The position numbers and the translations under genes are program-made. DNA of 64,000 bases, from IMG/VR virus record IMGVR_UViG_3300031841_004047; one strand, 5' to 3'. The number at the start of each line of letters is the position of its first letter. Position 1 is the first letter of the stretch. The DNA is from a virus. Below, one piece after another: positions 1 through 26,858 of the stretch. Under the pieces are notes generated by a model that saw only the letters and a list, made by a program, of their open reading frames with translations, was not told the DNA's origin and made no database searches.

Positions 1-849
1 AATCGCATACTTGGTACAGATAAAGACTATGTAATAGCGATTGATACCGATTCAGTCTATATCAATATGGGTCCACTCGTAAAGAAACTGAATCCTTCAG
101 ATCCAGTCAAAGCACTTGATAAGATATGTAAAGAACACTTTGAAAAAATTATTGCTGATGCTTACGGTGAGCTATTCAATAAGATGAATGCCTACACGCC
201 AAGAATGGAAATGGGAAGGGAAGTTATAGCTGATCGTGGTATCTGGATGGCTAAGAAAAGATATATTCTTAACGTACATAACAACGAAGGTGTACAATAC
301 GCTGAACCAAAACTTAAGATCATGGGTATCGAAGCAATTAAGTCTTCTACACCTGAAGTTGTTCGAGATAAGTTCAAAGAAATATTTAAAGTTATTATAA
401 CTGGAAATGAATCGGATACAAGAAAATTTATAAACAATTTTAAACAATACTTTAAATCTCTTCCTCCCGAATCAGTTGCTTTTCCTCGAGGAGTTCAAGA
501 AGTAGATAAATGGTCTGATCGTTTAAAAATCTATATTAAAGGTACACCTATTCATGTTAGAGGTGCTTTGCTATATAATCATACTATAAAAGATAAAGCA
601 CTCGAAAAGAAACATACTCTTATTCAATCTGGAGAAAAAATCAAGTTTTCTTACTTAAAAATGCCAAATCCTCTTCGTGAAAACGTGATATCTTTCCCAG
701 ATTATTTACCAAGTGAGTTGAATCTTCATAAATATATAGACTATGACACTCAGTTTGAAAAAACATTTATCGAACCCTTAAATCCAATCCTTGAAGCGGT
801 GGGTTGGTCAGTCAAAGAACAAGCAACACTAGAGGATTTTTTCGGATGA
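1..849 (+). CDS. gp43: Family B DNA polymerase, C-terminal part (5' truncated by window)
   Basis: Frame open from base 1 (NRILGTDKDYVIAIDTDSVY, palm DTDS motif); KKRY and KIMGIEAIKSSTP motifs; ends TLEDFFG, a clamp-binding-like tail. Confidence 0.97.
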   Translation, partial: NRILGTDKDYVIAIDTDSVYINMGPLVKKLNPSDPVKALDKICKEHFEKIIADAYGELFNKMNAYTPRMEMGREVIADRGIWMAKKRYILNVHNNEGVQYAEPKLKIMGIEAIKSSTPEVVRDKFKEIFKVIITGNESDTRKFINNFKQYFKSLPPESVAFPRGVQEVDKWSDRLKIYIKGTPIHVRGALLYNHTIKDKALEKKHTLIQSGEKIKFSYLKMPNPLRENVISFPDYLPSELNLHKYIDYDTQFEKTFIEPLNPILEAVGWSVKEQATLEDFFG

Positions 850-1590: not shown

Positions 1591-1609
1591 ATACAAAATG
1601 GAGAAAAAT

Positions 1610-2020
1610 ATGAGTGATTGGGCTTTTGATATCTACCAAATGCATAATAAGTTTGGTGTAAAAGAATGGTTTGAAAATAACAAACATGATAAAGAACTAA
1701 TGAAAACATACCTACGTTTTCGTTTGAATATGTGTAATGAAGAAATGGGTGAATGCTTTGATGCACTCGACAACGAAGATCCTGAAGAAATCGTAGATGG
1801 TCTTATTGATATCTGTGTATTTGCTATCGGTACTCTTGATGTCTTTGGTGTAGATGCCAATGAAGCATGGAATCGTATCTACGAAGCAAACATGGCAAAG
1901 TCACCTGGTGTGAAAGAAGGTAGACCTAATCCATTTGGTTTACCAGATCTAATCAAACCCGACGGATGGGAATCACCTAACCACGAAGGTAATCATGGAA
2001 GTCTCAGCGACCTTTTTTAA
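1610..2020 (+). CDS. All-alpha NTP pyrophosphohydrolase (MazG/PRA-PH-like), candidate dCTPase/dUTPase
   Basis: EEMGE...EIVDGLID acidic helices, ANMAK and DLIKPDGW motifs; GGAG RBS at 1600. Confidence 0.7.
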   Translation: MSDWAFDIYQMHNKFGVKEWFENNKHDKELMKTYLRFRLNMCNEEMGECFDALDNEDPEEIVDGLIDICVFAIGTLDVFGVDANEAWNRIYEANMAKSPGVKEGRPNPFGLPDLIKPDGWESPNHEGNHGSLSDLF

Positions 2021-6445: not shown

Positions 6446-7291
6446 ATGAGTAGATCTTTAAAGATTACTATTATAGGTCATGGGTTTGTCGGGAAAGCCA
6501 TTGATTATGCTTTTCAGTATAACGTTCAAAAACAAATCATAGATCCTAAAATAGGAGTAAACTTGAGTGACGTAACATTAAACTCCGATGTTACGTTCGT
6601 ATGCGTGCCGACTCCTATGCACGAAAATGGAAAGTGTGACATATCAATAATAAGTGAAGTCATAAAACAAATAAAGCAAAGAAGATCTGGTTTGATAGTT
6701 ATTAAGTCTACCGTTCCACCTGATCAAATAGAAAATCTTTTTAGAGGTACAGCTATATCAAGAATGGTTTACAACCCAGAGTTTCTTACAGAAAGAAATG
6801 CAAATGAAGATATACTAAATCCTTCGATGCATATTTTCGGAGGAGATAATAATGCTACCGAAAGACTAGAAAAAATATATAATGAGTACAGTATATGTAA
6901 ACCATGTCAAGTATTTCATGTTTCTGCTACTGACGCAAGTTTTATAAAATACGGAATAAATACTTTTCTTGCAACTAAACTAATATGGTTCAATGAACTA
7001 TATGACACAGTAAATAATTTTGGAGGCAACTTTGGAAAAATTGCAAACGCTATTGGGGCCGATCCAAGAATCGGACATTCCCATACTCGTGTTCCTGGGT
7101 TTGACAATCGTCGTGGTTTTGGTGGTGCATGTTTTCCCAAAGATGTAAGCGCTTTTGTCAACTTTACGGATCATATGCCTATCTTAGAATATGTTATGAA
7201 TAAAAACAACAATTATAGATTGTCTTATGAAAAAAATGATAGAGAAGTCGAACAAAACGTGAACTATGAGAATAAGAAAGAGAGTATATAA
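6446..7291 (+). CDS. UDP-glucose/GDP-mannose dehydrogenase family protein lacking the C-terminal domain
   Basis: IIGHGFVG Rossmann motif, CVPTP, KSTVPP, YNPEFL, catalytic Lys (IKYGINTFLATK), GFGGACFPKD catalytic Cys; only 281 aa. Confidence 0.85.
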   Translation: MSRSLKITIIGHGFVGKAIDYAFQYNVQKQIIDPKIGVNLSDVTLNSDVTFVCVPTPMHENGKCDISIISEVIKQIKQRRSGLIVIKSTVPPDQIENLFRGTAISRMVYNPEFLTERNANEDILNPSMHIFGGDNNATERLEKIYNEYSICKPCQVFHVSATDASFIKYGINTFLATKLIWFNELYDTVNNFGGNFGKIANAIGADPRIGHSHTRVPGFDNRRGFGGACFPKDVSAFVNFTDHMPILEYVMNKNNNYRLSYEKNDREVEQNVNYENKKESI

Positions 7292-7980
7292 TGATAATCC
7301 CTAGTGTAAAAGATATTCGTGAGTTCTTTGTCGGTGAACTTAAAGACGAAGCTTATACTATAGATAAGACCGGAGCTAAGACTATAGAAATGATTGGTGC
7401 TTCGTTCATAGCCGATGAGTCTTCTATATTTGGTACACCTAATACCGACTACATATCTCAAGAAATGTTGTGGTATACAAGCATGTCGACAAATATTAAA
7501 GACATATACGGAGAACACAGAGACCCGCCTTCTGCATGGCAGTATGCCGCGAACCAATTTGGTGAGATTAACTCTAACTACGGTTTGTTAATATATTCCG
7601 AAAAGTATTACAGCCAGTTTGAAAGAGTGTGTGACGAGTTGTTTGAAAACCCTGATGGTCGAAGAGCAACTATGATTTATAACAGACCATCGATATGGGT
7701 GGAGTATAATGAAAATGGAAAATCAGATTTTATTTGTACTAACGCTGTCACTTACTATATTCGTGATAATCTACTGCATGCTGTAGTTCAAATGCGTTCC
7801 AATGATGTTGTGTATGGTTATAAGAATGACTGGGCATGGCAAAACCGAGTGATGCACGACATAGTTCATGATCTTAATTTCTCAAATGGAAATGAAGATT
7901 TGGAAGTAGGTAAGATGGTTTGGCAGGTTCAGAACTTGCATGTATATGAACGTCACTTTGATCTAGTAAAAAATATTTAA
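7291..7980 (+). CDS. gp42: dCMP hydroxymethylase-type enzyme (thymidylate synthase fold)
   Basis: Collinear with T4 gp42: DKTGAKTIE, GEINSNYG, DFICTN (Cys149), MRSND, YKND (Asp180, equivalent to the dCMP-specific T4 Asp179), LHVYERHF. Confidence 0.92.
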   Translation: MIIPSVKDIREFFVGELKDEAYTIDKTGAKTIEMIGASFIADESSIFGTPNTDYISQEMLWYTSMSTNIKDIYGEHRDPPSAWQYAANQFGEINSNYGLLIYSEKYYSQFERVCDELFENPDGRRATMIYNRPSIWVEYNENGKSDFICTNAVTYYIRDNLLHAVVQMRSNDVVYGYKNDWAWQNRVMHDIVHDLNFSNGNEDLEVGKMVWQVQNLHVYERHFDLVKNI

Positions 7981-7990
7981 GGATGTTCTT

Positions 7991-8224
7991 ATGAGCAATT
8001 TGATATTGATCACCGATATCCTTGAAACAAAAGTAAGAAAAGAAAAAGAACTACAGTACTATCAGAAAGAATTAGAAAAACTTCAGAAAAAAATGTTCTT
8101 TGTTAAAAAGGATATTGAACTAACAAACCTGATCATTAATATGATTGAGAAAGAAAATATAATAGACTTTAAAGAGCAAGTCTTAATACGACAGGAAAAA
8201 AATGATACCACCTCAGATAATTAA
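7991..8224 (+). CDS. Small coiled-coil hypothetical protein
   Basis: ORF with AGGA RBS, charged heptad pattern. Confidence 0.65.
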   Translation: MSNLILITDILETKVRKEKELQYYQKELEKLQKKMFFVKKDIELTNLIINMIEKENIIDFKEQVLIRQEKNDTTSDN

Positions 8225-8684
8225 GATTTTTGAAAAAGATATGGCTAAAGGTCTTCACTGGACCACTGTGATCACCGAAAGAGCAATGCTAGCAGTAATA
8301 GGTGCTTTAACTGTAATCGCAGCTAGTTTTAATGTGTACTCAATGATAGTATCAATGAAGATAGAATTAGCGGATTTGTTTCTTTTATTCATCTATACAG
8401 AAATAGTCGGCATGGTTGGTGCTTACTACATAAGTAATAGGATACCAGTTACTCTTCCTATCATTATAGCTATGACTGCTTTATGTAGGCTTATTATTCT
8501 TCATTCTAAAGATGCTAACCCATGGGTACTAGTAGCAGAAGCTGGAGCGATCGTCGTTCTAGCCGGAGCCGCGTATCTCATGAGTGCTAAGGAAAAACTA
8601 AGCCTGGAAAAGAAAGAAAAGCGAAAAAAAGAATATGATGCGGGGTTCAAAAAGACAGAAAAAAAAGATTTAGACGATGAATAG
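8202..8684 (+). CDS. psiE: PsiE family membrane protein
   Basis: LADLFLLFIYTEIVGMVGAYY...RIPVTLPIIIAMTALCRLII, four hydrophobic segments. Confidence 0.8.
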   Translation: MIPPQIIKIFEKDMAKGLHWTTVITERAMLAVIGALTVIAASFNVYSMIVSMKIELADLFLLFIYTEIVGMVGAYYISNRIPVTLPIIIAMTALCRLIILHSKDANPWVLVAEAGAIVVLAGAAYLMSAKEKLSLEKKEKRKKEYDAGFKKTEKKDLDDE

Positions 8685-9126
8685 TAGGTATACTAAATGG
8701 GATAGAAGATATCTGGATCTGGCATATACGGTTAGTAAATGGTCAAGAGATCCATCAACACAAATCGGCGCGGTCGCGATTGGATCCAAGGGTCAAGTTT
8801 TATCTCAAGGTTATAACGGCTTTCCTAGAGGAATAAAAGATACTCTAGATCGATATCATCATAGAGAAACTAAATATAAGCTTATTGTTCATGCTGAACA
8901 AAATTTAATATACAATGCTACATACAATGGTGTCTCATTGGATGGATCTACACTGTATGTAACGGGACTTCCGGTTTGTTCCGAATGTGCTAAAGGTGTT
9001 ATACAAGTCGGTATCAAAAGAGTTGTTATGCCACATATAGATGATATGAAATCTTGGAAAGAATCTTGGGAGTTGTCTGCTTCTATGTTCAGAGAAGCCG
9101 GAATATTATGGGATTTCATAATATAA
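8677..9126 (+). CDS. cd: dCMP deaminase
   Basis: SRDPSTQIGA, GYNG, HAEQN and PVCSECAK zinc motifs. Confidence 0.92.
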   Translation: MNSRYTKWDRRYLDLAYTVSKWSRDPSTQIGAVAIGSKGQVLSQGYNGFPRGIKDTLDRYHHRETKYKLIVHAEQNLIYNATYNGVSLDGSTLYVTGLPVCSECAKGVIQVGIKRVVMPHIDDMKSWKESWELSASMFREAGILWDFII

Positions 9127-9158: not shown

Positions 9159-9187
9159 TTTACATAACTATACTACTATGATATAAT
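9159..9187 (+). promoter_or_regulatory. sigma70-like promoter with extended -10
   Basis: TTTACA-17-TATAAT with TG at -15/-14. Confidence 0.8.
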
Positions 9188-9207: not shown

Positions 9208-9702
9208 ATGAAAATAAAAAGCTTAATAGTCATGGGTCTTAATCCTTCTAAGAGTCCATCACGAAAAGGTTCTACTATCCCAAAGCTACACTCTTGGATG
9301 TATGACAGCCTAGAAGTAGACTCATTCTTTATGTCTAATGTTTCTCATGATCCAGACTGGGATTTTAAATATAGATCTATAGATAAAAATCATGTCATTG
9401 AAACTTTAAGAGATCATGATATCATAATAGCTTTAGGTAGCACGGTGTATAACTACTTAAAGAGGATGGGGTTTAAGAATATGTTTAAGCTTCCTCATCC
9501 ATCACCTAGGAATCGTCAGTTAAATGACAAATCTTTCGAAATAAAAATTTTAAATGAATGTAAAGAGTATTTGACTCAGGAAGGCTTCTATGAAAATAGC
9601 AATAGGCAAAGTGGGAAAATCAATAAAGTTTGGTCCGGAGTCGTTAAGCACCGGAAAAAAATCAATGACGGCGGGCTCGATAGATGCACGTGTAATCTTT
9701 GA
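9208..9702 (+). CDS. Uracil-DNA glycosylase superfamily protein
   Basis: MGLNPS (motif A-like), SNV, IIALG, LPHPSPRN (motif B); reading frame overlaps the next gene by 113 nt. Confidence 0.7.
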   Translation: MKIKSLIVMGLNPSKSPSRKGSTIPKLHSWMYDSLEVDSFFMSNVSHDPDWDFKYRSIDKNHVIETLRDHDIIIALGSTVYNYLKRMGFKNMFKLPHPSPRNRQLNDKSFEIKILNECKEYLTQEGFYENSNRQSGKINKVWSGVVKHRKKINDGGLDRCTCNL

Positions 9703-10828
9703 ACTTTTAATTAGGTTTAATCCACAACACACGTTTTATATAGTTGGTAGATCAAACTATTCTCGTCTTAAACCTGAGATAAGAGATAAGATCAACGTTC
9801 ATAACAACGTTGTTGATCTGTGGAGTGGTTTTAACGAGTGGTTTGATAATCAAGACGATAAAGATGAAATGACGGAGTCATGGAGGTACATGGATCACGT
9901 CATTGAATCCGGACATACATTTGACACGGGTATATTTATTGCAGGAGGAGTACTTGAGTACGCGGTTCAAGGAAAAACTCTAAAGAACGGCGAACCTATT
10001 AAAACTTTAAACGCAGCGACTAAGTATGCAGCTCCTATTCATCACTTCATAAATATTACGAAGCTACCATACGTGATGCTGGTCACTGATCCAAGATGCT
10101 ACCCGAAACCAACAAAAGATCTTATGGTACCACCTCGTAGAATATTGTCTCAGTACGATGAAGTTGTAGACGTCGAACATCGTGTAACTTATGAGGATGA
10201 CGATATGGTCATCGATAAAGTTAAATCCGTATACTCCGGTATAGAATCTCTATACGTAGTCGAAGAACAGTGGAACGAAAAAGAAACAAGTCTTGAAGAC
10301 TTCTTTGGTGATCCAGACCCAGCCCCTGAACGTGACATCAACATGGTACTATTCCTAAACGAAGGTAACCCTTCAAGATATGAAGACTTAAAGAAATATA
10401 TCTTAAATGACATAGAAGATGTTAACGTCTATGGAGTATGGAACGATAAAGCTTTACAAGATCCACGAATAGAGCAGATAGCGATGGCTGAGCTTACTCA
10501 TCTTTTCCCTAGGATTAGATACACGTTTTGTATACCAATCGCTCCCGGTTGGGCGACCGGAAAGTTTTGGGAGATGACTAAGTACGGAATCATTCCGTTT
10601 ATGCATCCGAGTTATGATGAAGGTAAAAACATTGGTTTTCCAGAGGAGCTAAGAGTTAAAGATTCAAAAGATTTGTTAGAAAAAATAAGTATGTACAACT
10701 CTGATAAATTATGTTATAATAATATACATGAAAGGCTTCAGAATATGGTCACTCCGGATCATAAATCTGGCAAGTTTATAAATGATATGGTTATGAAAAA
10801 TGTTATGGAGATAGTCAATGAAGATTGA
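9590..10828 (+). CDS. DNA glycosyltransferase, T4 beta-glucosyltransferase-like (GT-B)
   Basis: Ordered matches to T4 BGT: MKIAI, LVTDPR (FTDIR), ILSQ (VISQ), GIESLY (PIEQY), TGKFWE (TLRVWE), VKDSKDLLEKI (VNNRAELIDRV). Confidence 0.72.
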   Translation: MKIAIGKVGKSIKFGPESLSTGKKSMTAGSIDARVIFELLIRFNPQHTFYIVGRSNYSRLKPEIRDKINVHNNVVDLWSGFNEWFDNQDDKDEMTESWRYMDHVIESGHTFDTGIFIAGGVLEYAVQGKTLKNGEPIKTLNAATKYAAPIHHFINITKLPYVMLVTDPRCYPKPTKDLMVPPRRILSQYDEVVDVEHRVTYEDDDMVIDKVKSVYSGIESLYVVEEQWNEKETSLEDFFGDPDPAPERDINMVLFLNEGNPSRYEDLKKYILNDIEDVNVYGVWNDKALQDPRIEQIAMAELTHLFPRIRYTFCIPIAPGWATGKFWEMTKYGIIPFMHPSYDEGKNIGFPEELRVKDSKDLLEKISMYNSDKLCYNNIHERLQNMVTPDHKSGKFINDMVMKNVMEIVNED

Positions 10829-11150
10829 AAAAAGACATATTTCTGAGTTTACTGGTGGATGGTTTATTGGAAACTTTGAGCCATCGGTTCTTAAAAGCGA
10901 TGATTTCGAAGTATCAATTAAGCTGCATCCTAAGGGAGAAGTTTGGCCAAAGCATTATCACAAAGTGGCTACCGAGTATAACTATGTGATAGACGGCATA
11001 GTAGAAATAGATGGCATAAAATATGAAAAAGATGACATCTTCATTATTCATCCAAACTTTGTCGTAGATCCCAATTTTCTTGAAGACTGCAGAATAGTAT
11101 GTGTAAAAACACCATGCGTACCTGGAGATAAGTATGAGGTTGAAAGATAA
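10818..11150 (+). CDS. Small cupin protein
   Basis: GWFIGNFEPS, HYHKVATE cupin motif, KTP...DKY end; type seen in polysaccharide loci. Confidence 0.75.
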   Translation: MKIEKRHISEFTGGWFIGNFEPSVLKSDDFEVSIKLHPKGEVWPKHYHKVATEYNYVIDGIVEIDGIKYEKDDIFIIHPNFVVDPNFLEDCRIVCVKTPCVPGDKYEVER

Positions 11151-12215
11151 ATGAGAGTAATTATTCCAATGGCCGGACTGGGGTCAAGATTTACAAACAA
11201 GGGATATAAGACACACAAACCGTTAATCGAAGTTAACGGTAAAACTCTTATTAGATACGCAGTTGAGTCATTAAACATAAGTGCTCATTACGTATTCGTA
11301 TGTAGGGACTTAGGAGGTTCATACCTTGAAAACTTAGAATCAGAAATAAAAGACATTACTTACGGTCGATACGAAATAAAAGTAATAGATCATATGACGT
11401 CTGGAGCAGCAGAAACCGCTCTTTTAGGTTGTGATAGCGAGTATGACGGAGAATTAATTGTCACCAACTGTGATCAGTATTTAGACTGGGACTCTGAAGC
11501 TTTCCTTAAAGAATCAAGAAAATATGATGGTTCTGTACTAACTTACGACTCGACTGATCCTAAAAATTCTTTCGTAGAGTTCGCGAACAAAAAAGTAGTA
11601 AGAATGGTCGAGAAACAAGCTATATCAAACAATGCTTTAGTAGGAGTACACTACTGGAAAAAAGCATCGGATTTCATTAACTCTACTAAATCTTCTCTAG
11701 CTAACTTTACCTCAAAAGAATCTTATGTGTCTGAAACATATAACTACTTAATAGCTGATGGTAAAAAAATTGGAGCAATATCAATTATGGATGGTACTTA
11801 TTGGTCCACCGGAACTCCTGAAGATCTGGCATATTTCAAAGGGATGATATCCGAATATTATACCTCTAAAAATAATACATATTTTATTGATCTTGATGGT
11901 ACAATCTTTATGCATGCACATAGGTACTCCAACTTAAAAAATGATGTTCAGTTGTGTCCAGGTGTTCTTGAAACTTTAGATGAACTTGATTCGAGAGGTG
12001 ATACGATCATACTTGTTTCGGCAAGAAAAGAGTCTGCGAGATCAATGACTGAGAAATTACTTGATGATTTCATGATTCCTTATGATCAGCTTATACTTGG
12101 TGTATCTCAAGGATGTAGGATAGTCATAAACGATATTATCACGAAGTCATCTTTTCCAAGAGCAAGAGCCGTGAATGTAATCACGGACAAAGGATGGAAA
12201 GCAAACGATTTATGA
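11151..12215 (+). CDS. Sugar nucleotidyltransferase fused to a C-terminal HAD phosphatase-like domain
   Basis: IIPMAGLGSRF...KPLI, VTNCDQ, GTPEDL; C-terminal FIDLDGT. Confidence 0.82.
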   Translation: MRVIIPMAGLGSRFTNKGYKTHKPLIEVNGKTLIRYAVESLNISAHYVFVCRDLGGSYLENLESEIKDITYGRYEIKVIDHMTSGAAETALLGCDSEYDGELIVTNCDQYLDWDSEAFLKESRKYDGSVLTYDSTDPKNSFVEFANKKVVRMVEKQAISNNALVGVHYWKKASDFINSTKSSLANFTSKESYVSETYNYLIADGKKIGAISIMDGTYWSTGTPEDLAYFKGMISEYYTSKNNTYFIDLDGTIFMHAHRYSNLKNDVQLCPGVLETLDELDSRGDTIILVSARKESARSMTEKLLDDFMIPYDQLILGVSQGCRIVINDIITKSSFPRARAVNVITDKGWKANDL

Positions 12216-13402
12216 ATTATGCGAGTATAGTACCTTTAATCGGAGGAGAGACATTCGGTATGCAAGAAGTGTTTGGTCAAAAGCCAGACTACATCTTATC
12301 ATACTCGGATTTTGAAGCAAATGATAGACAACTTCTTAACTATTATAATAATAGTGTTCCTTATTATAAGCTTGATCAAGGTGGTTCTGCCCCTCACAGA
12401 GTGGATGTTATCAATACTGTATGCCCTTGTGCGGGTCTTTCTTCACTTAGTCCTACTAGCAGCGCTAGTAACACTACTAATGATTGGATGGTCAAGTCTG
12501 CCCAGTATATTCTAGAAGAAGTACAACCGACTGTCTTTTGGGGAGAAAATGCTCCTAGACTAGCCAGCAAGATGGGTGAGCCTATAGTAAATAAGCTAAG
12601 GAAGATCGGGAAAGATAATGGTTACACCATGACTCTTTATAAAACAAAATCTTTACTTCATGGCTTATCTCAAGTAAGAGACAGATGCTTTTACTTCTTT
12701 TGGAAAGGCAACCATGTTCCAGTTTTTGCATACTACAACAACTTATTAAGGGAGAGTATCGAAGATACTATAAGGTCATCATCTAGTAATCAAATAGACG
12801 AAATGTATGATATGCAGGCCAAGACTTCTAAGCCTTCAGATGATCCATACTATAAATATGTTTTAGAAGAGATTGAAGATGGTATAACACATCAAGATTT
12901 TTTTAAAAAAATTAAAAAAACTACCAATCCATTGGATTATATCGAGCAAAAAGGTATTAAATATAATACTGTAGCTAAGTGGATGAAGATGAAGGGATAT
13001 GACAAGTATGAAGTCAAATGTCAAAGAATGCATGAAAAGCTTGAGTCTGGTGGAAACATAATGAGAAAGGCTACTACAATCGCAAAGGATTATATCGGCG
13101 CTTTTGTAGGTAACATGGCAACTGACATTACACACCCTGATGTTGATAGGTACATAAACGTAAGAGAAGCTCTTGATATAATGAAGATGCCTAAAGATTT
13201 TCAGCTTCAAGGAGGAACAAAAAACATTAATATGATATGTCAAAACGTTCCGGTTACTACTGCTAGAGATATGGCTTTTAATGTATCAGCATACCTAGGA
13301 GGACATTTAACTACTCATAAATCTGATTTTGCTGTTCAGGATAATAAAACAACTAAGTTTTGGAGAGAGCCTGAACCCTCAACTCTTGAAGAGTTTTTGT
13401 AG
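12212..13402 (+). CDS. C5-cytosine methyltransferase-fold protein with atypical motif I
   Basis: CPCAGLS (IV), GENAP (VI), QVRDR (VIII), HP...REA...PKDF (IX), QNVP (X); motif I reads IVPLIGG instead of FxGxGG. Confidence 0.78.
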   Translation: MNYASIVPLIGGETFGMQEVFGQKPDYILSYSDFEANDRQLLNYYNNSVPYYKLDQGGSAPHRVDVINTVCPCAGLSSLSPTSSASNTTNDWMVKSAQYILEEVQPTVFWGENAPRLASKMGEPIVNKLRKIGKDNGYTMTLYKTKSLLHGLSQVRDRCFYFFWKGNHVPVFAYYNNLLRESIEDTIRSSSSNQIDEMYDMQAKTSKPSDDPYYKYVLEEIEDGITHQDFFKKIKKTTNPLDYIEQKGIKYNTVAKWMKMKGYDKYEVKCQRMHEKLESGGNIMRKATTIAKDYIGAFVGNMATDITHPDVDRYINVREALDIMKMPKDFQLQGGTKNINMICQNVPVTTARDMAFNVSAYLGGHLTTHKSDFAVQDNKTTKFWREPEPSTLEEFL

Positions 13403-13431
13403 TTTACAACATAATGAAAATAGTTTATAAT
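13403..13431 (+). promoter_or_regulatory. sigma70-like promoter
   Basis: TTTACA-17-TATAAT upstream of uvsX. Confidence 0.8.
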
Positions 13432-13460: not shown

Positions 13461-14510
13461 ATGTCGATTATGGACAAGCTCAAAAAGAACTCAAAGCTAA
13501 GTCACACCGAAGTTCTTTCTGAGTCTAAATTCTTTACTGAAAAAGATATGGTACCAACTGACGTACCGATGATTAACGTTGCGTTATCTGGTTCAGTAGA
13601 TGGTGGCTTAGCACCTGGGCTAACAGTTCTTGCTGGCCCTTCAAAACATTTTAAAACATCATTTGCGTTACTAATGGCTGCAGCTTATATGAAGAAGTAT
13701 CCTGAAGCCGTTATGTTATTTTATGATTCCGAGTTTGGTTCACCTGAAGCTTACTTCGAACAATTTGAAGTTGATACATCACGAGTACTTCACACACCAA
13801 TCACAAACGTAGAAGAATTAAAGTTTGATCTCATCGGTCAGCTTGAAGAACTTGATCGTGAAGATAAAGTGGTTATAGTTATCGACTCAATCGGTAACTT
13901 AGCGTCTAAGAAAGAAATGGAAGACGCACTGAATGAAAAATCAGTTGCTGATATGTCAAGGGCTAAAGCACTGAAAGGGTTGTTTCGTATGTGTACACCC
14001 TATCTAGCCATGAAGAATATCCCTCTTCTTGCTGTTAACCATACTTATAAAGAAATAGGTTTGTTTCCTCGTGATGTTGTTGGCGGTGGTACAGGTATAT
14101 ACTACTCAGCTGATAACATTTGGATTCTAGGTCGTCAACAAGATAAGAAGGGTACAGAAATTCAAGGGTATCACTTCGTAATCAATGTGGAGAAATCACG
14201 ATATGTTAAAGAAAAGTCTAAGATTCCTATCACTGTTAGTTGGGACGGTGGTGTACGTAATTTTTCTGGTTTACTCGATGTTGCTCTTGCCGGTGGTTAT
14301 GTTACTAAACCTTCTAACGGTTGGTATGCTAGAACTGACAGACAAACTGGAGAGGTCGGTCCGAAAGTCAGACAAGAGCAGACTCTAGAAAAAGAATTTT
14401 GGGATCCGATCTTCGCGGAAACAGATTTCAAAGATTTTTTAAAGAAACAGTATTCTATAGGACACCAAGAACAAGTATCAATGGAATCCATTGTTGAGGA
14501 AGAAGTATGA
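13461..14510 (+). CDS. uvsX: RecA-like recombinase UvsX
   Basis: LAGPSKHFKT Walker A, FYDSEFG, IDSIGNLAS, NVEKSR. Confidence 0.97.
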   Translation: MSIMDKLKKNSKLSHTEVLSESKFFTEKDMVPTDVPMINVALSGSVDGGLAPGLTVLAGPSKHFKTSFALLMAAAYMKKYPEAVMLFYDSEFGSPEAYFEQFEVDTSRVLHTPITNVEELKFDLIGQLEELDREDKVVIVIDSIGNLASKKEMEDALNEKSVADMSRAKALKGLFRMCTPYLAMKNIPLLAVNHTYKEIGLFPRDVVGGGTGIYYSADNIWILGRQQDKKGTEIQGYHFVINVEKSRYVKEKSKIPITVSWDGGVRNFSGLLDVALAGGYVTKPSNGWYARTDRQTGEVGPKVRQEQTLEKEFWDPIFAETDFKDFLKKQYSIGHQEQVSMESIVEEEV

Positions 14511-22525: not shown

Positions 22526-22956
22526 TTTTAATATCACATCGTGGAAACATAAACGGTAAGCAACCTTCTTTTGAAAATAGTCCGGAATACATCATGGCTG
22601 CTATTGAAGCTGGTTACGAAGTAGAAATAGATGTATGGTATAAAGATGATTCTTTATGGCTAGGGCATGATGGACCCGAGTATAAGACGGACGTAGACTT
22701 TCTTTTCAAGGGAGACTTCTGGATCCATTGTAAAAACATAGAAGCCTTATGTAAGCTTCAACCCTGGAGACTAAATACCTTCTGGCATGATAATGACGAT
22801 TATACTTTAACTAATAACGGAACAATTTGGGCTTATCCCGGTAAACTAGTCCCTCATGGGTTTGAAACTATAGCTGTTTTACCAGAAATACATGAAGTTG
22901 ATGTGACAAATTTCAACGGAGTTTGTTCAGATTTTATTGAAAGATATAAAGTATGA
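22522..22956 (+). CDS. Glycerophosphodiester phosphodiesterase/PLC-like small protein
   Basis: ISHRGN, VEIDVW, LGHD, WIHCKN, GVCSD. Confidence 0.78.
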   Translation: MILISHRGNINGKQPSFENSPEYIMAAIEAGYEVEIDVWYKDDSLWLGHDGPEYKTDVDFLFKGDFWIHCKNIEALCKLQPWRLNTFWHDNDDYTLTNNGTIWAYPGKLVPHGFETIAVLPEIHEVDVTNFNGVCSDFIERYKV

Positions 22957-24305
22957 TAAAACTAGTACTCTTTGACTTAGATGGTGTATTGATAGACGCA
23001 AAAAAGATTCACTTTGATGCATTAAATGAAGCACTCGGTGAACAATACGCAATATCCGAAAAAGAACATACAAGTCTGTATGATGGAAGAAAAACTTTTG
23101 AGAAGCTAGACTTACTAACTGAACGTAAAGGTTTACCTTCATCTCTCCATAAAGAGATATACGACAAGAAGCAATCAATCACAATGACAAAAATATCGGA
23201 GTTGAAACCGATAGACGAGATTGTGAAACTCTTTCAAGCTCTAGAGCAACAAAACTATCTTATCGGTGTTTGTTCTAACTCTATTCGTAGAACAGTATTA
23301 ACTTCACTTGCAAAAACTCAACTTATGGAATACTGTTCAGTTATTATATCAAATGAAGATGTGAAGAATTCAAAACCTCACCCAGAGATGTACTGGAAAG
23401 CGATGTCAATGATGACGGTGTTGCCAGAAGAAACATTGATCGTTGAAGATAGTCCTCCTGGTCTTTTAGCTGCGGAGAGATCAAGAGCAAATTATATAAG
23501 AGTAGATAATCCGTATGATGTAACACGAGAAAAGGTATTCTCAAATCTCAAAGGAAGTAAGATGGCGAATATTTGGAAAGATGAAAAGCTAAACGTCTTG
23601 ATACCAATGGCCGGTGCAGGTTCAAGATTTCAAAAAGCGGGATACACGTTTCCTAAACCAATGATACAAGTACATGACAAACCAATGATACAAGTTGTAG
23701 TCGATAACCTAGGATTAGAAGCAAATTATATCTTTGTTGTACAAAAAGACCATAGAGAGAAATATAATCTTGATACGTTTCTTAATTTAATAACACCGGG
23801 CGAGTGTAAAGTTATCGAGGTTGATGGTATTACAGAAGGTGCTGCTTGCACTGCACTACTCGCCAAAGAATTCATTAACAACCAGAACCCGCTGTTCTTT
23901 GCAAACTCCGACCAGTTTGTTGAGTGGAATCCGGTTGAGTTTATGTATAATATGCAAGAAACGAATGCAGATGGTGGTATGGTTACTTTCAAAGCAACAC
24001 ATCCTAAATGGTCTTTCGCAAAAGTTAATGATGATGGATTGGTTACGCAAGTAGCAGAAAAGAATCCAATTAGTGATAATGCAACCGTAGGTTACTACTA
24101 TTGGAAACAGGGGTCAGACTTCGTTAAGTACGCTGAAGATATGATAGAGAAAGATATAAGAGTTAATAATGAGTTCTACGTTTGTCCAGTATATAATCAG
24201 GCCATTGAAGATAATAAACAAATTAGAGTGTATGATGTTAAAGGTATGTGGGGACTTGGTACACCAGAAGATCTGGAATACTACATAAACAATTATAAAG
24301 GCTAG
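22953..24305 (+). CDS. HAD phosphatase fused to a sugar nucleotidyltransferase
   Basis: FDLDGVLID, KPHP, VEDS; then LIPMAGAGSRF...KP, NSDQ, GLGTPEDL. Confidence 0.88.
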   Translation: MIKLVLFDLDGVLIDAKKIHFDALNEALGEQYAISEKEHTSLYDGRKTFEKLDLLTERKGLPSSLHKEIYDKKQSITMTKISELKPIDEIVKLFQALEQQNYLIGVCSNSIRRTVLTSLAKTQLMEYCSVIISNEDVKNSKPHPEMYWKAMSMMTVLPEETLIVEDSPPGLLAAERSRANYIRVDNPYDVTREKVFSNLKGSKMANIWKDEKLNVLIPMAGAGSRFQKAGYTFPKPMIQVHDKPMIQVVVDNLGLEANYIFVVQKDHREKYNLDTFLNLITPGECKVIEVDGITEGAACTALLAKEFINNQNPLFFANSDQFVEWNPVEFMYNMQETNADGGMVTFKATHPKWSFAKVNDDGLVTQVAEKNPISDNATVGYYYWKQGSDFVKYAEDMIEKDIRVNNEFYVCPVYNQAIEDNKQIRVYDVKGMWGLGTPEDLEYYINNYKG

Positions 24306-24307
24306 TT

Positions 24308-24901
24308 ATGTATAGAGAAAACAACCCTATAGGGATACCAAATATAAGAAATTATAAATTATCAGAAACACCTGATATATTCAATGACATATATAATAGT
24401 TCATATTGGAAACACGGTGATGGTTCAGGTGGCAATTCTCAACCTCACATTGTTTTAGACTTATTTCCTATACTAGATGAGATATTTGAAACATATGATA
24501 TCACAACAGTTGCTGACTTAGGATGTGGTTCACACTATGTATTCAAAGACTACAAATGGCCTGATTATATACAATACACTGGATACGATGCATCTAAACT
24601 AGCCATAGAAAGAGCTAATAATAATTGTAATAGAAATGACTTTACTTTTGTAGAATGCTACGACTTCAATGAAATACCGCCATGTGATTTTTTACTCGTA
24701 AAAGATGTAGTATGTCATTGGCATGTAGACTTATTAAATAGCTTCATTGACAATATTATCCCTAAATTTAAATATACTGCTATTATAGGAGGTGTTGATA
24801 TTACACTAACTAAAAAGATAGAGAAAGATTGTACAACTAATTGGTTCATGAAAACTGGAAAGGATATAGACTATGGTATCTGGTTATTTTCAAACATGTA
24901 G
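24308..24901 (+). CDS. Class I SAM-dependent methyltransferase
   Basis: GSGGNS, VADLGCG, YTGYD, LVKDV. Confidence 0.8.
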   Translation: MYRENNPIGIPNIRNYKLSETPDIFNDIYNSSYWKHGDGSGGNSQPHIVLDLFPILDEIFETYDITTVADLGCGSHYVFKDYKWPDYIQYTGYDASKLAIERANNNCNRNDFTFVECYDFNEIPPCDFLLVKDVVCHWHVDLLNSFIDNIIPKFKYTAIIGGVDITLTKKIEKDCTTNWFMKTGKDIDYGIWLFSNM

Positions 24902-25493
24902 TTGTCCATACTGCATAAAGAACGGTGGATGGCCTAACTTAAAGTTTGTAAAAACTATTGATAGATTCTGGTTTGAAACTCCAAAGAATGCTTCTGTATC
25001 TATAAAATGGGAATGTGGGATAAATAAAAGTTCTAGAACTAAAGCCAAGATGACAGAAGGTGATAAAGCTATACTGGTGTATAGAGATCCAATCGTTAGG
25101 TTTAAGAGTACTTTAATTCATTACTTCCACGAATCTGGTTTAAGATTTAAAAATCACAAGGGTAAAAGATTTCCAGATGGAATTGGATTCTTTAAAGACT
25201 TGGGCTATAATATAGAAGAAATTAATATCGGTAAAAGAGTGGATATTATACTAGATAATTTAAATGTTCTTTCGACAAAATATGAAGTACATCATTGGTG
25301 GCCACAAGTTAATTTCTTTGATACTAATAATGTGGATATAATTCCTATGGAAAAAGTGAACGAAGTATTCAATATAAGTAGAAAAAGAAACGTCGCACCA
25401 AAAAAGGTTGATTTGAAATTTACAAAGGAACAAAGACAAAAAATAATTAAAGTCTATGAAGAAGATTATAACTATTTTGAAGGAAAGATATAA
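24873..25493 (+). CDS. Sulfotransferase family 2-like protein
   Basis: ETPKNASVSIK 5'-PSB loop, YRDPIVRFKS 3'-PB motif, HWWPQ. Confidence 0.75.
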   Translation: MVSGYFQTCSCPYCIKNGGWPNLKFVKTIDRFWFETPKNASVSIKWECGINKSSRTKAKMTEGDKAILVYRDPIVRFKSTLIHYFHESGLRFKNHKGKRFPDGIGFFKDLGYNIEEINIGKRVDIILDNLNVLSTKYEVHHWWPQVNFFDTNNVDIIPMEKVNEVFNISRKRNVAPKKVDLKFTKEQRQKIIKVYEEDYNYFEGKI

Positions 25494-26201
25494 ATGAAAG
25501 TAGCAGCAGTTTATTCTGGCCTATATCGTGAATTTGATGGATGGGATAGAAATCATGAAAAAATAACAAAATATTGTGATGATGTTCTTTATACTACTTG
25601 GAAAGGTAAACCAAAACCAAATAAAAAAGTTGTTACATTTTCTGAACCAATCATAGACTATAAACCAATGCAGATTCCAGAGGTTGTACGAAGATGGCCT
25701 CGTATGATAAGTCACTTTGATAATCCGGGTCAGATGTGGCTAACTAAGCAAATAGTCGCACATCAGTATGCCTGTGATTATATAGGGGCAGAAAACTATG
25801 ATGTAATTATAAGAATGAGGTATGACATATGGTTAGGAAATCAAGATTGGAAAGGATTCATTGATAAAGTATCAGAAGAGAAAGTAGTCATATCATTTGG
25901 TGGATGGAGTGGAGAGATGGATAGAAATAAAAATATATGTGAAGAATTAATAATCCCTACTCCAAAAAATGGCGGTACGAAAATGGAAGGACAAATGCTT
26001 GATTTTATGAATATTCACCCAGGTTATAAAATGAAAGATGGTGTAAGACTTCATAATGAAAAAAAACTTATGCCCGCCAATCTGGGTTGGCAACAAGTTT
26101 TAGCTGATCCGTATCCAGAGGAAACTATTAATTACGGTGGAGGGGCTATGTTATCTAGATATAGAGAAAAATCTTTTCATCATATCCCAGGAGGAATTTG
26201 A
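25494..26201 (+). CDS. Glycan-locus protein of unknown function, paralog of 26860..27597
   Basis: MKVAAVYSGLYR, YDVIIRMRYD, GWQQVLADPY. Confidence 0.6.
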   Translation: MKVAAVYSGLYREFDGWDRNHEKITKYCDDVLYTTWKGKPKPNKKVVTFSEPIIDYKPMQIPEVVRRWPRMISHFDNPGQMWLTKQIVAHQYACDYIGAENYDVIIRMRYDIWLGNQDWKGFIDKVSEEKVVISFGGWSGEMDRNKNICEELIIPTPKNGGTKMEGQMLDFMNIHPGYKMKDGVRLHNEKKLMPANLGWQQVLADPYPEETINYGGGAMLSRYREKSFHHIPGGI

Positions 26202-26207
26202 TTATAA

Positions 26208-26858
26208 ATGGAAAATAGAATTGTTTTAGAAGTTGGATGCAGTGACGGTTTTGATACGCTTAAACTTAGAAAAAAGTTTAACTTACCAGTATATGGCTTT
26301 GAACCAGTACCACAGAATTTTAAACATTTAAATAAAATTATGGAAAACGATAAAAACATTCATATTTATCAGACGGCCATAGATATCAATGATGGAGAAA
26401 GTGATTTTTATTTAAGCGATCCGTATGGTGAGAACGGAAAATTTACAGACGGTACAAATAGGGTTATACATCCTTATGGTTGCAGCAGTTTGTATCAATT
26501 TAACGATGATATACATGAAAAATGGCATGGAAGACCAGACTTTAATATGGTTGAAAAAATAACAGTAAAAACCAAACGTCTTGATACATTCTTAAGCGAA
26601 AATAATTTTGATGGAGAGATCGAGTATCTACACTGTGATGCTCAAGGTCATGATGTTAAAGTTCTTGAAAGTTTAGGAGATTATATTAGATGCGTTAAGC
26701 AAGGTAATATAGAAGTAGCTGGTAAAACTGAGCTGTATAAAGGAACCAACAATAATATTAGAGCTGCTAAAATTCTTCTAGCAAAGAAAGGTTTTCTGAT
26801 TACTAATAACCCAAATACAAAAAATCATGAAACTGACGTGAATTTTAAAAGGATGTAG
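26208..26858 (+). CDS. FkbM-family methyltransferase
   Basis: LEVGCSDG, YGFEP, KRLDTF, LHCDAQGHD. Confidence 0.85.
   Translation: MENRIVLEVGCSDGFDTLKLRKKFNLPVYGFEPVPQNFKHLNKIMENDKNIHIYQTAIDINDGESDFYLSDPYGENGKFTDGTNRVIHPYGCSSLYQFNDDIHEKWHGRPDFNMVEKITVKTKRLDTFLSENNFDGEIEYLHCDAQGHDVKVLESLGDYIRCVKQGNIEVAGKTELYKGTNNNIRAAKILLAKKGFLITNNPNTKNHETDVNFKRM

Follow-up and report, generated by a model that had tools for sequence, protein, structure and literature searches.

A phage cytosine C5-methyltransferase-fold protein with an altered cofactor site and a polymerase-like C-terminal tail, linked to a T4 gp42-type hydroxymethylase

The MTl gene and its operon

The window analysed here is a 64,000-nucleotide stretch of viral DNA (IMG/VR record IMGVR_UViG_3300031841_004047), and MTl, its operon, the flanking promoter-like sites and the polymerase, gp42-type, dCMP deaminase and uvsX genes lie on its plus strand. 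The gene in question, MTl, occupies positions 12212..13402 and encodes a 396-amino acid protein with the cytosine C5-methyltransferase fold, the window's member of the 'PLIGG' family. MTl combines intact catalytic motifs with a conserved departure from the canonical S-adenosylmethionine (SAM) site, a C-terminal tail resembling that of phage DNA polymerases and a close association with a T4 gp42-type dCMP hydroxymethylase. It belongs to a marine T4-like phage that would build its DNA with hydroxymethylcytosine, and it probably has a previously undescribed role on freshly replicated phage DNA. The open reading frame (ORF) is open from position 12194. As its homologues are 395–397 amino acids long and begin with MNYAS, the ATG at 12212 is taken as the real start. 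The start codon and the TGA of the preceding gene overlap in the sequence ATGA, an arrangement that fits translational coupling.

MTl is the last of five co-directional genes. The operon opens with a gene for a uracil-DNA glycosylase (UDG)-superfamily protein (9208..9702), followed by a DNA glycosyltransferase (GT) resembling the T4 beta-glucosyltransferase (BGT; 9590..10828), a small cupin-like protein (phrog_24762; 10818..11150) and a fusion of a sugar-1-phosphate nucleotidyltransferase with a HAD phosphatase (11151..12215), the stop codon of which overlaps the MTl start. The two best sigma-70-like sites between 8 and 14 kb, both TTTACA-N17-TATAAT, flank these genes: one at the operon head (9159..9187) and the other immediately past the MTl stop (13403..13431), before the gene for the recombinase UvsX (13461..14510), the conserved downstream neighbour of MTl. 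Such promoter-like sites are no more numerous than in shuffled sequence, so the bracketing of 9208..13402 is indicative only. The initial annotation had placed MTl at the end of a glycosyltransferase operon, and both the bracketing sites and the likeness of the glycosyltransferase to T4 BGT agree with this. Further upstream lie the 3′ part of the DNA polymerase gene (1..849, protein end ..ATLEDFFG), the gp42-type gene (7291..7980) and a dCMP deaminase gene (8677..9126).

A second HAD-nucleotidyltransferase fusion is found in the window at 22953-26858, with a domain order opposite to that of the operon fusion. Behind it lie genes for two proteins with methyltransferase domains (Methyltransf_31/11 and FkbM), and together these belong to a separate glycan-type island.

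Fold and catalytic motifs

The PF00145 profile matches MTl at an E-value of 4.5e-16, above the gathering score, from profile position 58 onward only; the motif I–III region is thus unrecognised, and the first 65 residues have no match in the Pfam model. The NCBIfam dcm score falls far under its cut-off, a single-sequence search of the PDB with MTl returned no matches, and megablast against phages likewise returned none. An alignment and profile (A1) was built from 108 diverse MTl homologues of 28–53% identity, the set to which the conservation counts below refer. Compared with the PDB, this profile matches HaeIII, CmoX (8YF3), DNMT1 and HhaI, in each case from about position 39–64 on. The AlphaFold2 (AF2) model built on the alignment has a predicted local distance difference test score (pLDDT) of 96.3 and a predicted TM-score of 0.93. 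Its best Foldseek matches are HhaI, HaeIII, CmoX and DNMT1/MET1, with E-values of about 1e-13 for HhaI, HaeIII and DNMT1. The model and its matches confirm that the fold is of the class I methyltransferase type and includes a target-recognition insert.

The catalytic motifs that had been described as intact in the initial annotation are all present. Motif IV reads CPCAGLS (residues 71–77; 12422..12442) and contains the catalytic Cys73. Motif VI is GENAP (residues 111–115; 12542..12556) with an invariant E112, motif VIII is QVRDR (residues 154–158; 12671..12685) with invariant R156 and R158, motif IX is RE..MK.P, and motif X is QNVPV (residues 344–348; 13241..13255). Across the family, C73, E112, R156 and R158 show little or no variation.

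The cofactor side

The equivalent of motif I is IVPLIGG (residues 6–12; 12227..12247), which replaces FxGxGG as the initial annotation had noted. In hhalign, the family version IIPLIGG falls on LFAGIGG of Escherichia coli Dcm, and the segment is strongly conserved: P8 is found in 107/108 homologues, L9 in 106/108, G11 in 108/108 and G12 in 106/108. The substitution is therefore not a chance feature of one sequence. The SAM-loop pattern is lost through the replacement of the adenine-stacking Phe by Val or Ile and of the first Gly by Leu, the latter in 106 of the homologues.

The motif II region (12299..12325) reads S30-Y31..F34..N37-D38, with an aromatic residue rather than an acidic one at the end of strand 2, where the ribose-binding Glu would stand. 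Position 31 is Tyr in 80, Phe in 15 and Trp in 9 homologues, its placement being based on the AF2 strand at residues 28–30 and on the downstream N-Y register. F34, N37 and D38, which follow it, are invariant. The Gln after the catalytic Cys, equivalent to Q82 of HhaI, is Ala in 96/108 homologues (Ala74 in MTl), changing PCQ to PCA. Motif X reads QN (Q344, N345) in place of the canonical GN; the Asn is retained, Gln stands for Gly, and the Arg of CmoX-type enzymes is lacking. In M.HhaI, Gln82 and Asn304 flank the transferable group, and the Q82A change lowers methyl transfer about 16-fold and favours bulkier groups.

P8, L9, the aromatic residue at position 31, F34, N37, D38, A74 and Q344 are all nearly invariant. 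As conservation at these cofactor-side positions equals that of the catalytic residues, the pocket appears to be constrained and different as opposed to decaying. Judged from the replaced residues, the pocket beside C5 is not a standard SAM pocket. Even if MTl is a methylase, it exemplifies natural cofactor binding without the canonical motif I and motif II residues.

The gp42-type hydroxymethylase and the glycosyltransferase

The product of the gene at 7291..7980 matches the T4 dCMP hydroxymethylase (1B49) with an E-value of 4e-71. It keeps the catalytic Cys (FICTN) and the dCMP-specifying Asp at the position of N177 in thymidylate synthase (TS). A recent study showed that RB69-type homologues, recognisable by an Asn in place of TS D169, make 5-hydroxy-dCMP. 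In the window protein the corresponding segment is RSND..KND, where the D169 and N177 positions are each occupied by Asp as in the hydroxymethylase type, and an RB69-type pathway was rejected as the D169 equivalent is Asp. By these residues, the gene is a true T4 gp42-type dCMP hydroxymethylase, and the premise of the initial annotation that the phage carries gp42 holds.

The family profile of the operon glycosyltransferase matches T4 BGT (6.7e-5), and the six best Foldseek matches of its AF2 model (pLDDT 89.7) are all T4 BGT. The gene order polymerase..42..GT..uvsX..41 is that of T4, where beta-gt lies between 42 and uvsX and the homing endonuclease gene segA lies between beta-gt and uvsX. 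MTl is an addition at that spot.

Between the gp42-type gene and the dCMP deaminase gene is a PsiE-family (phosphate-starvation-inducible) gene (8202-8684), which looks like an auxiliary metabolic gene inserted into the nucleotide module. In Cyanophage S-TIM61, a gene annotated as 'ThyA' (L001:8769-9605) lies 2.4 kb from an MTl homologue and reads GVPLD where TS has PFN. Given the Asp at the N177 position, its product is probably dCMP-specific and not a thymidylate synthase.

Linkage across related loci

Four scans of IMG/VR, seeded with the window MTl and with three distant sub-clades, yielded 294 loci. These were dereplicated at 75% MTl identity to 71 loci, the ORFs of which were clustered by phmmer. 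The commonest neighbours of MTl are gp42 (53 loci) and a BGT-like GT (43 loci); the latter is also the gene most often found immediately upstream of MTl, at a median gap of -48 nucleotides. Nucleotidyltransferases, UvsX, gp41, dCMP deaminase and the polymerase are further frequent neighbours. The layout is constant, with gp42, the dCMP deaminase, a variable DNA GT or kinase cassette and then MTl. The cassette may consist of a BGT-like GT with a nucleotidyltransferase-kinase; of a GT resembling the T4 alpha-glucosyltransferase (AGT; PF11440, 6e-33) with an epimerase and a UDP-sugar dehydrogenase; or of a protein like the 5-hydroxymethyldeoxyuridine (5-hmdU) DNA kinase with an inositol-1-phosphate-synthase-like protein.

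The kinase-type cassette lies directly upstream of MTl and downstream of gp42 in L260 (5578-6855), L041 (1035-2183), L212 (4654-5709), L278, L049 and L208. It comprises the inositol-1-phosphate-synthase-like protein, a protein bearing the helical domain of the 5-hmdU DNA kinase (PF18723, 2e-12) and a 352-amino acid protein, and is a candidate for phosphorylation-based hypermodification of 5-hydroxymethylcytosine (5hmC).

A total of 49 dereplicated loci have at least 7 kb on both sides of MTl. A gp42-type gene lies within 10 kb in 41 of them, and 42 carry a DNA GT or kinase cassette. Three loci (L296, L299 and L300) have an Asp-type TS homologue elsewhere on the contig, and four of the remaining loci are fragments, 11–23% complete, of the clade of one of these three. 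Two contigs (26% and 57% complete) carry only a canonical Asn-type ThyA, but a second homologue may still be present, since T4 possesses both types. The co-occurrence raised in the initial annotation is thus borne out: within a phage-only family, MTl is nearly always accompanied by a gp42-type gene and by a DNA GT or kinase cassette. In L050, L043 and L245, MTl stands right behind gp42 and the deaminase with no GT nearby. The tie is therefore to hydroxymethyl-deoxycytidine (hm-dC) and not to one particular sugar.

One locus without a gp42-type gene in reach (L166:5898-11140) has MTl flanked by two DUF6734 proteins, a 2-oxoglutarate (2OG)-Fe(II) oxygenase and a Methyltransf_24 protein. This arrangement may represent a different, post-replicative pathway. 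The oxygenase was considered as a TET enzyme and rejected, its similarity being of the generic PhyH type only.

The sister clade as a natural control

The closest isolate by UvsX is phage C48C1 (L056; 77% identical). Its gene order is polymerase, methyltransferase, primase, epimerase, dehydrogenase and UvsX, and it has neither gp42 nor MTl. No PLIGG-type MTl or gp42-type gene was detected in 80 sister-clade loci, 32 of which have at least 7 kb upstream of uvsX, and there was no PF00303 match in three sister-clade contigs that are 83–91% complete. It follows that gp42 and MTl come and go together between close relatives. The possibility that MTl orthologues are common in phages lacking gp42 is not borne out, and the sister clade without gp42 is also without MTl.

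Seven of the 80 loci carry a weakly matching methylase upstream of the polymerase (examples are L320:2798-3955, L343:2303-3451 and L350:740-1912). These genes have SPPC and GRMVPP, the CmoX signature, and the MTl model gives them a score of no more than about 42 bits. The UDP-sugar dehydrogenase and epimerase genes (window 6446-7291; also in C48C1) adjoin uvsX even in the absence of gp42 or a DNA GT. Since they are present in the gp42-less clade, these sugar genes are not necessarily dedicated to DNA glycosylation.

The C-terminal tail

MTl ends in EPSTLEEFL, in which STLEEFL (13379..13399) resembles a polymerase clamp-binding tail. The corresponding ends are EQATLEDFFG in the window polymerase and KASLDFLFG in T4 gp43. 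The C-terminus of gp43 binds the gp45 sliding clamp. The tail is conserved in the close MTl family, and the clamp-like tail of the initial annotation is confirmed as a sequence resemblance to the gp43-like C-terminal peptide of the polymerase. The clamp gene itself lies outside the window.

Among dereplicated loci, this type of tail is carried by 51/73 MTl proteins, 24/33 polymerase ORFs, 19/50 BGT-like and 9/11 AGT-like GTs, and by just 0–4 members of gp42, dCMP deaminase, UvsX or gp41. The similarity score between the MTl and polymerase tails of the same locus is 9.16, versus 6.58 ± 1.05 for shuffled pairs, and 36 of 5000 shuffles scored as high as the real pairs; as the loci are related, this is supportive only. 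The resemblance in clade 2 (NYKVNSII versus NLIYTTSLF) is weak by BLOSUM62 and is not leaned on. The tails of other lineages close with ..K(S/A)LF and recall the beta-clamp motifs of bacteria; one of them adjoins a Pol III alpha gene. It is proposed that these phages may tether methylase-fold, AGT-like and BGT-like enzymes to the clamp by a polymerase-type tail. This would be a counterpart, in viruses of prokaryotes, to the binding of DNMT1 to PCNA.

GTs with polymerase-like tails (..TLEEFFV, ..TLEDFFG or ..KSLF) occur at L288:7960-9237, L090:8736-9992 and other related loci; the glycosyltransferase encoded in the window (9590..10828) has no such tail. A MazG/PRA-PH-type NTP pyrophosphatase of the window (1598-2020), a candidate dCTPase that adjoins the polymerase in 24 loci, ends in the clamp-motif-like ..HGSLSDLF, and most of its orthologues are without such a tail.

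Family size and range

A word-indexed search retrieved 2302 MTl clusters at 90% identity, the majority drawn from the marine datasets of Tara, JGI and ENA; the contigs reach 205 kb. When searched exhaustively, the family came to 695 representatives at 50% identity, and for 233 the E-value was 1e-30 or better. The ESM Atlas neighbours of MTl are all viral. The only matching isolates are the S-TIM5-group cyanophages, Pseudoalteromonas phage vB_Psh_XG4 and, weakly, Bacillus phage G, at 26–31% identity. A pattern scan of one genome per species (185,579 cellular species) returned seven loci, all in metagenome-assembled genomes (MAGs). One is a 1.2-kb fragment and six are long and carry phage genes, five of these six with a gp42-type gene in the same layout. 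By these searches, the MTl family, in which the cofactor-side changes are near-invariant, is large and phage-only. A restriction-modification methylase was rejected, as no nuclease accompanies the family and its only occurrences in cellular genomes are MAG contigs of phage origin.

Two groups of fused relatives were found in metagenomes. P0260 joins zf-C2H2, an MTl relative and a TET-like dioxygenase (TET2, 6.8e-12), with 47 members on contigs of 3–5 kb; P0230 joins an MTl relative to zf-CXXC. Both look eukaryote- or giant-virus-like. P0260 was considered as proof of methylase activity and rejected as uninformative, since its pocket residues are unlike those of the MTl family.

Proposed function and alternative explanations

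The C-terminal tail would hold MTl on the phage sliding clamp, with the DNA being scanned directly behind the replication fork. MTl would flip a cytosine-type base out of the helix, and Cys73 would attack C6 with E112 placed at N3/N4 and R156/R158 at O2. Chemistry would then take place at C5. The most likely flipped base would be 5hmC, with the Cys-C6 adduct allowing its 5-CH2-OH to be exchanged or processed. The other option is that MTl would turn stray, unmodified C into a 5hmC-type base. Because the cofactor residues are replaced (Phe by Val/Ile, Gly by Leu, Glu by an aromatic residue and Gln by Ala), MTl is read not as an ordinary methylase but as a catalytically active, clamp-tethered cytosine-C5 enzyme that has a non-canonical cofactor site and would perform a co-replicative finishing step in the hm-dC pathway, and this reading is given a probability of about 45%. 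We infer four of its components: the clamp binding, nascent phage DNA as the target, non-SAM chemistry and the identity of the substrate.

Taken singly, a 5hmC-directed reaction is somewhat unlikely. It explains more of the observations than the other readings do, namely the strict linkage, the strong conservation (the substrate would be abundant), the Gln-to-Ala change and the rebuilt pocket, and it has in-vitro precedent. The finishing of stray C fits the clamp tether, and could proceed via SAM to give 5-methylcytosine (5mC) or via a one-carbon donor to give 5hmC; conversion of stray C to a hydroxymethyl-type base is quite unlikely. A function other than these or SAM methylation is unlikely. 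The bolder proposal, advanced tentatively, is that MTl is a natural SAM-independent enzyme that applies the Cys-C6 mechanism of the methylases to 5hmC, swapping its 5-CH2-OH for a different group, or places a hydroxymethyl group onto stray C, while riding the clamp.

Several points weigh against the finishing-enzyme reading. G11-G12, D55 (at the motif III position; Asp in 79/108 homologues) and N345 are retained, which may leave room for SAM in a shifted binding mode, and the AF2 model is of the protein without cofactor. A 5hmC-directed reaction requires new biology and has no evident partner donor; no constant partner encoding a donor or nucleophile for alternative chemistry was evident across the loci. 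No gp42-type gene lies in reach in L166, L209, L213, L215 and L305, and the linkage counts are inflated by common ancestry, most of the loci being those of related T4-like phages. The CXXC and TET-like fusions suggest that plain C is the substrate, or 5mC the product, of some relatives. As for the tether, the reported binding of the T4 alpha-GT to gp45, with which it co-purifies, speaks in its favour, but the C-terminus of that enzyme, like that of beta-GT, is without the tail motif.

The strongest alternative is that MTl is an ordinary SAM-dependent C5 methyltransferase with drifted motifs, which would place 5mC at a short motif behind the fork, on cytosines that escape hm-dC substitution or are left because substitution is only partial. 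This is a serious possibility, though short of even odds, and it is favoured by prior probability: PF00145 matches above its gathering score, and nearly all characterised members are SAM methylases. The retained G11-G12, D55 and N345 are in keeping with it, as are the TRD-like (target-recognition domain) insert, the most variable part of MTl as in sequence-specific methylases, and a clamp tether, which suits a scanner for rare unmodified sites. One relative is also fused to a true TET domain; however, that relative deviates at exactly the pocket positions (L9N, Y31D, W92I and N345G). Drift fits poorly with the family-wide, conserved absence of the Phe and Gly of motif I, the Glu of motif II and the Gln of motif IV; replacing this Gln alone (Q82A) lowers methylation by HhaI about 16-fold. 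Even CmoX, which uses a SAM analogue, keeps its adenosine contacts, and conservation across thousands of phages is hard to square with a substrate that is rare.

It is very unlikely that MTl acts on host DNA, with its unmodified C, as a SAM-less deaminase or adduct former aiding shut-off or degradation, possibly with the UDG-like protein. C5 methylases without SAM do deaminate cytosine, T4-like phages tell C-DNA from hmC-DNA, and the operon opens with a UDG-superfamily gene; that gene, however, is found in just 8/71 loci. MTl is tied to the DNA GT cassettes and not to the nuclease genes near the polymerase, and its tail matches that of the phage's own polymerase, pointing to phage forks. The initial annotation had proposed another cofactor, action on hmC, mopping up of residual C or the marking of host DNA. 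This interpretation is partly supported: its premises of gp42 and co-occurrence stand and all four functions are compatible with the sequence, host marking being the least supported because the tail is shared with the phage polymerase.

Lastly, an accessory role in base flipping or DNA binding without catalysis, such as presenting 5hmC to the GTs or shielding sites, is compatible with an altered cofactor site that has lost transfer chemistry and with a gene that always adjoins those of DNA-modifying enzymes, but is highly improbable given that Cys73, E112, R156 and R158 are (near-)invariant in 108 divergent homologues, which is unexpected for a pure binder, and that T4 glucosyltransferases flip their base unaided.

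Significance

MTl is a known kind of enzyme with a substantial chance of new chemistry, and its family is abundant in marine T4-like phages. If the chemistry is not plain methylation, the DNA of the marine virome holds an unknown cytosine modification, which would affect sequencing, restriction-based methods and the picture of phage counter-defence. MTl could become a tool for site-directed 5hmC labelling. Should the non-SAM reading be true, the 'atypical' methylase reactions seen in vitro would correspond to a real biological pathway.

Comparison with known systems

MTl shares with M.HhaI, M.HaeIII and Dcm (PF00145) the fold, the motif order, the Pro-Cys, the Glu of EN(V/A), QxRxR and motifs IX and X, as well as the two-domain organisation with an insert between motifs VIII and IX. 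It differs from these enzymes in VPLIGG, the aromatic motif II residue, PCA, QN and the clamp-type C-terminal tail. Unlike the bacterial members, it is confined to phages, has no restriction partner and is linked to gp42.

CmoX is a phage DNA cytosine C5-carboxymethyltransferase that takes its carboxymethyl group from carboxy-SAM (Cx-SAM; PDB 8YF3; PMC12783734). It keeps the adenosine contacts F25, E47, F48 and D69, and is defined by SPPC and the motif X Arg (R350), with CmoA in the genome (PMC12783734). CmoX is the third-best PDB match of MTl by profile and fold. Both are phage-encoded C5-methylase folds with a small residue after the catalytic Cys; CmoX installs something other than a methyl group, and a CmoX-type enzyme holds an analogous role in the sister clade. 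MTl differs in having CPCA and Asn, in the loss of the adenosine contacts and in having no CmoA-like synthase alongside. A CmoX identity was rejected, as MTl has CPCA and QNVPV instead of SPPC and Arg.

With the T4 alpha-GT/gp45 and DNMT1/PCNA pairs, MTl would share the idea of a DNA-modifying enzyme placed on the sliding clamp such that nascent DNA is modified at once. It differs from the T4 GTs in that its tether would be a polymerase-like C-terminal peptide and its fold is that of a methylase.

In vitro, C5 methylases without SAM add formaldehyde (HCHO) to C and couple thiols to 5hmC, as laboratory side reactions at millimolar reagent concentrations. To our knowledge, no natural enzyme is dedicated to such atypical reactions, and none was found in literature searches. 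These reactions use the covalent Cys-C6 activation that the residues of MTl would support, at the 5-position and without SAM. The enzymes engineered for them carry a Gln-to-Ala change, and MTl has the same change naturally.

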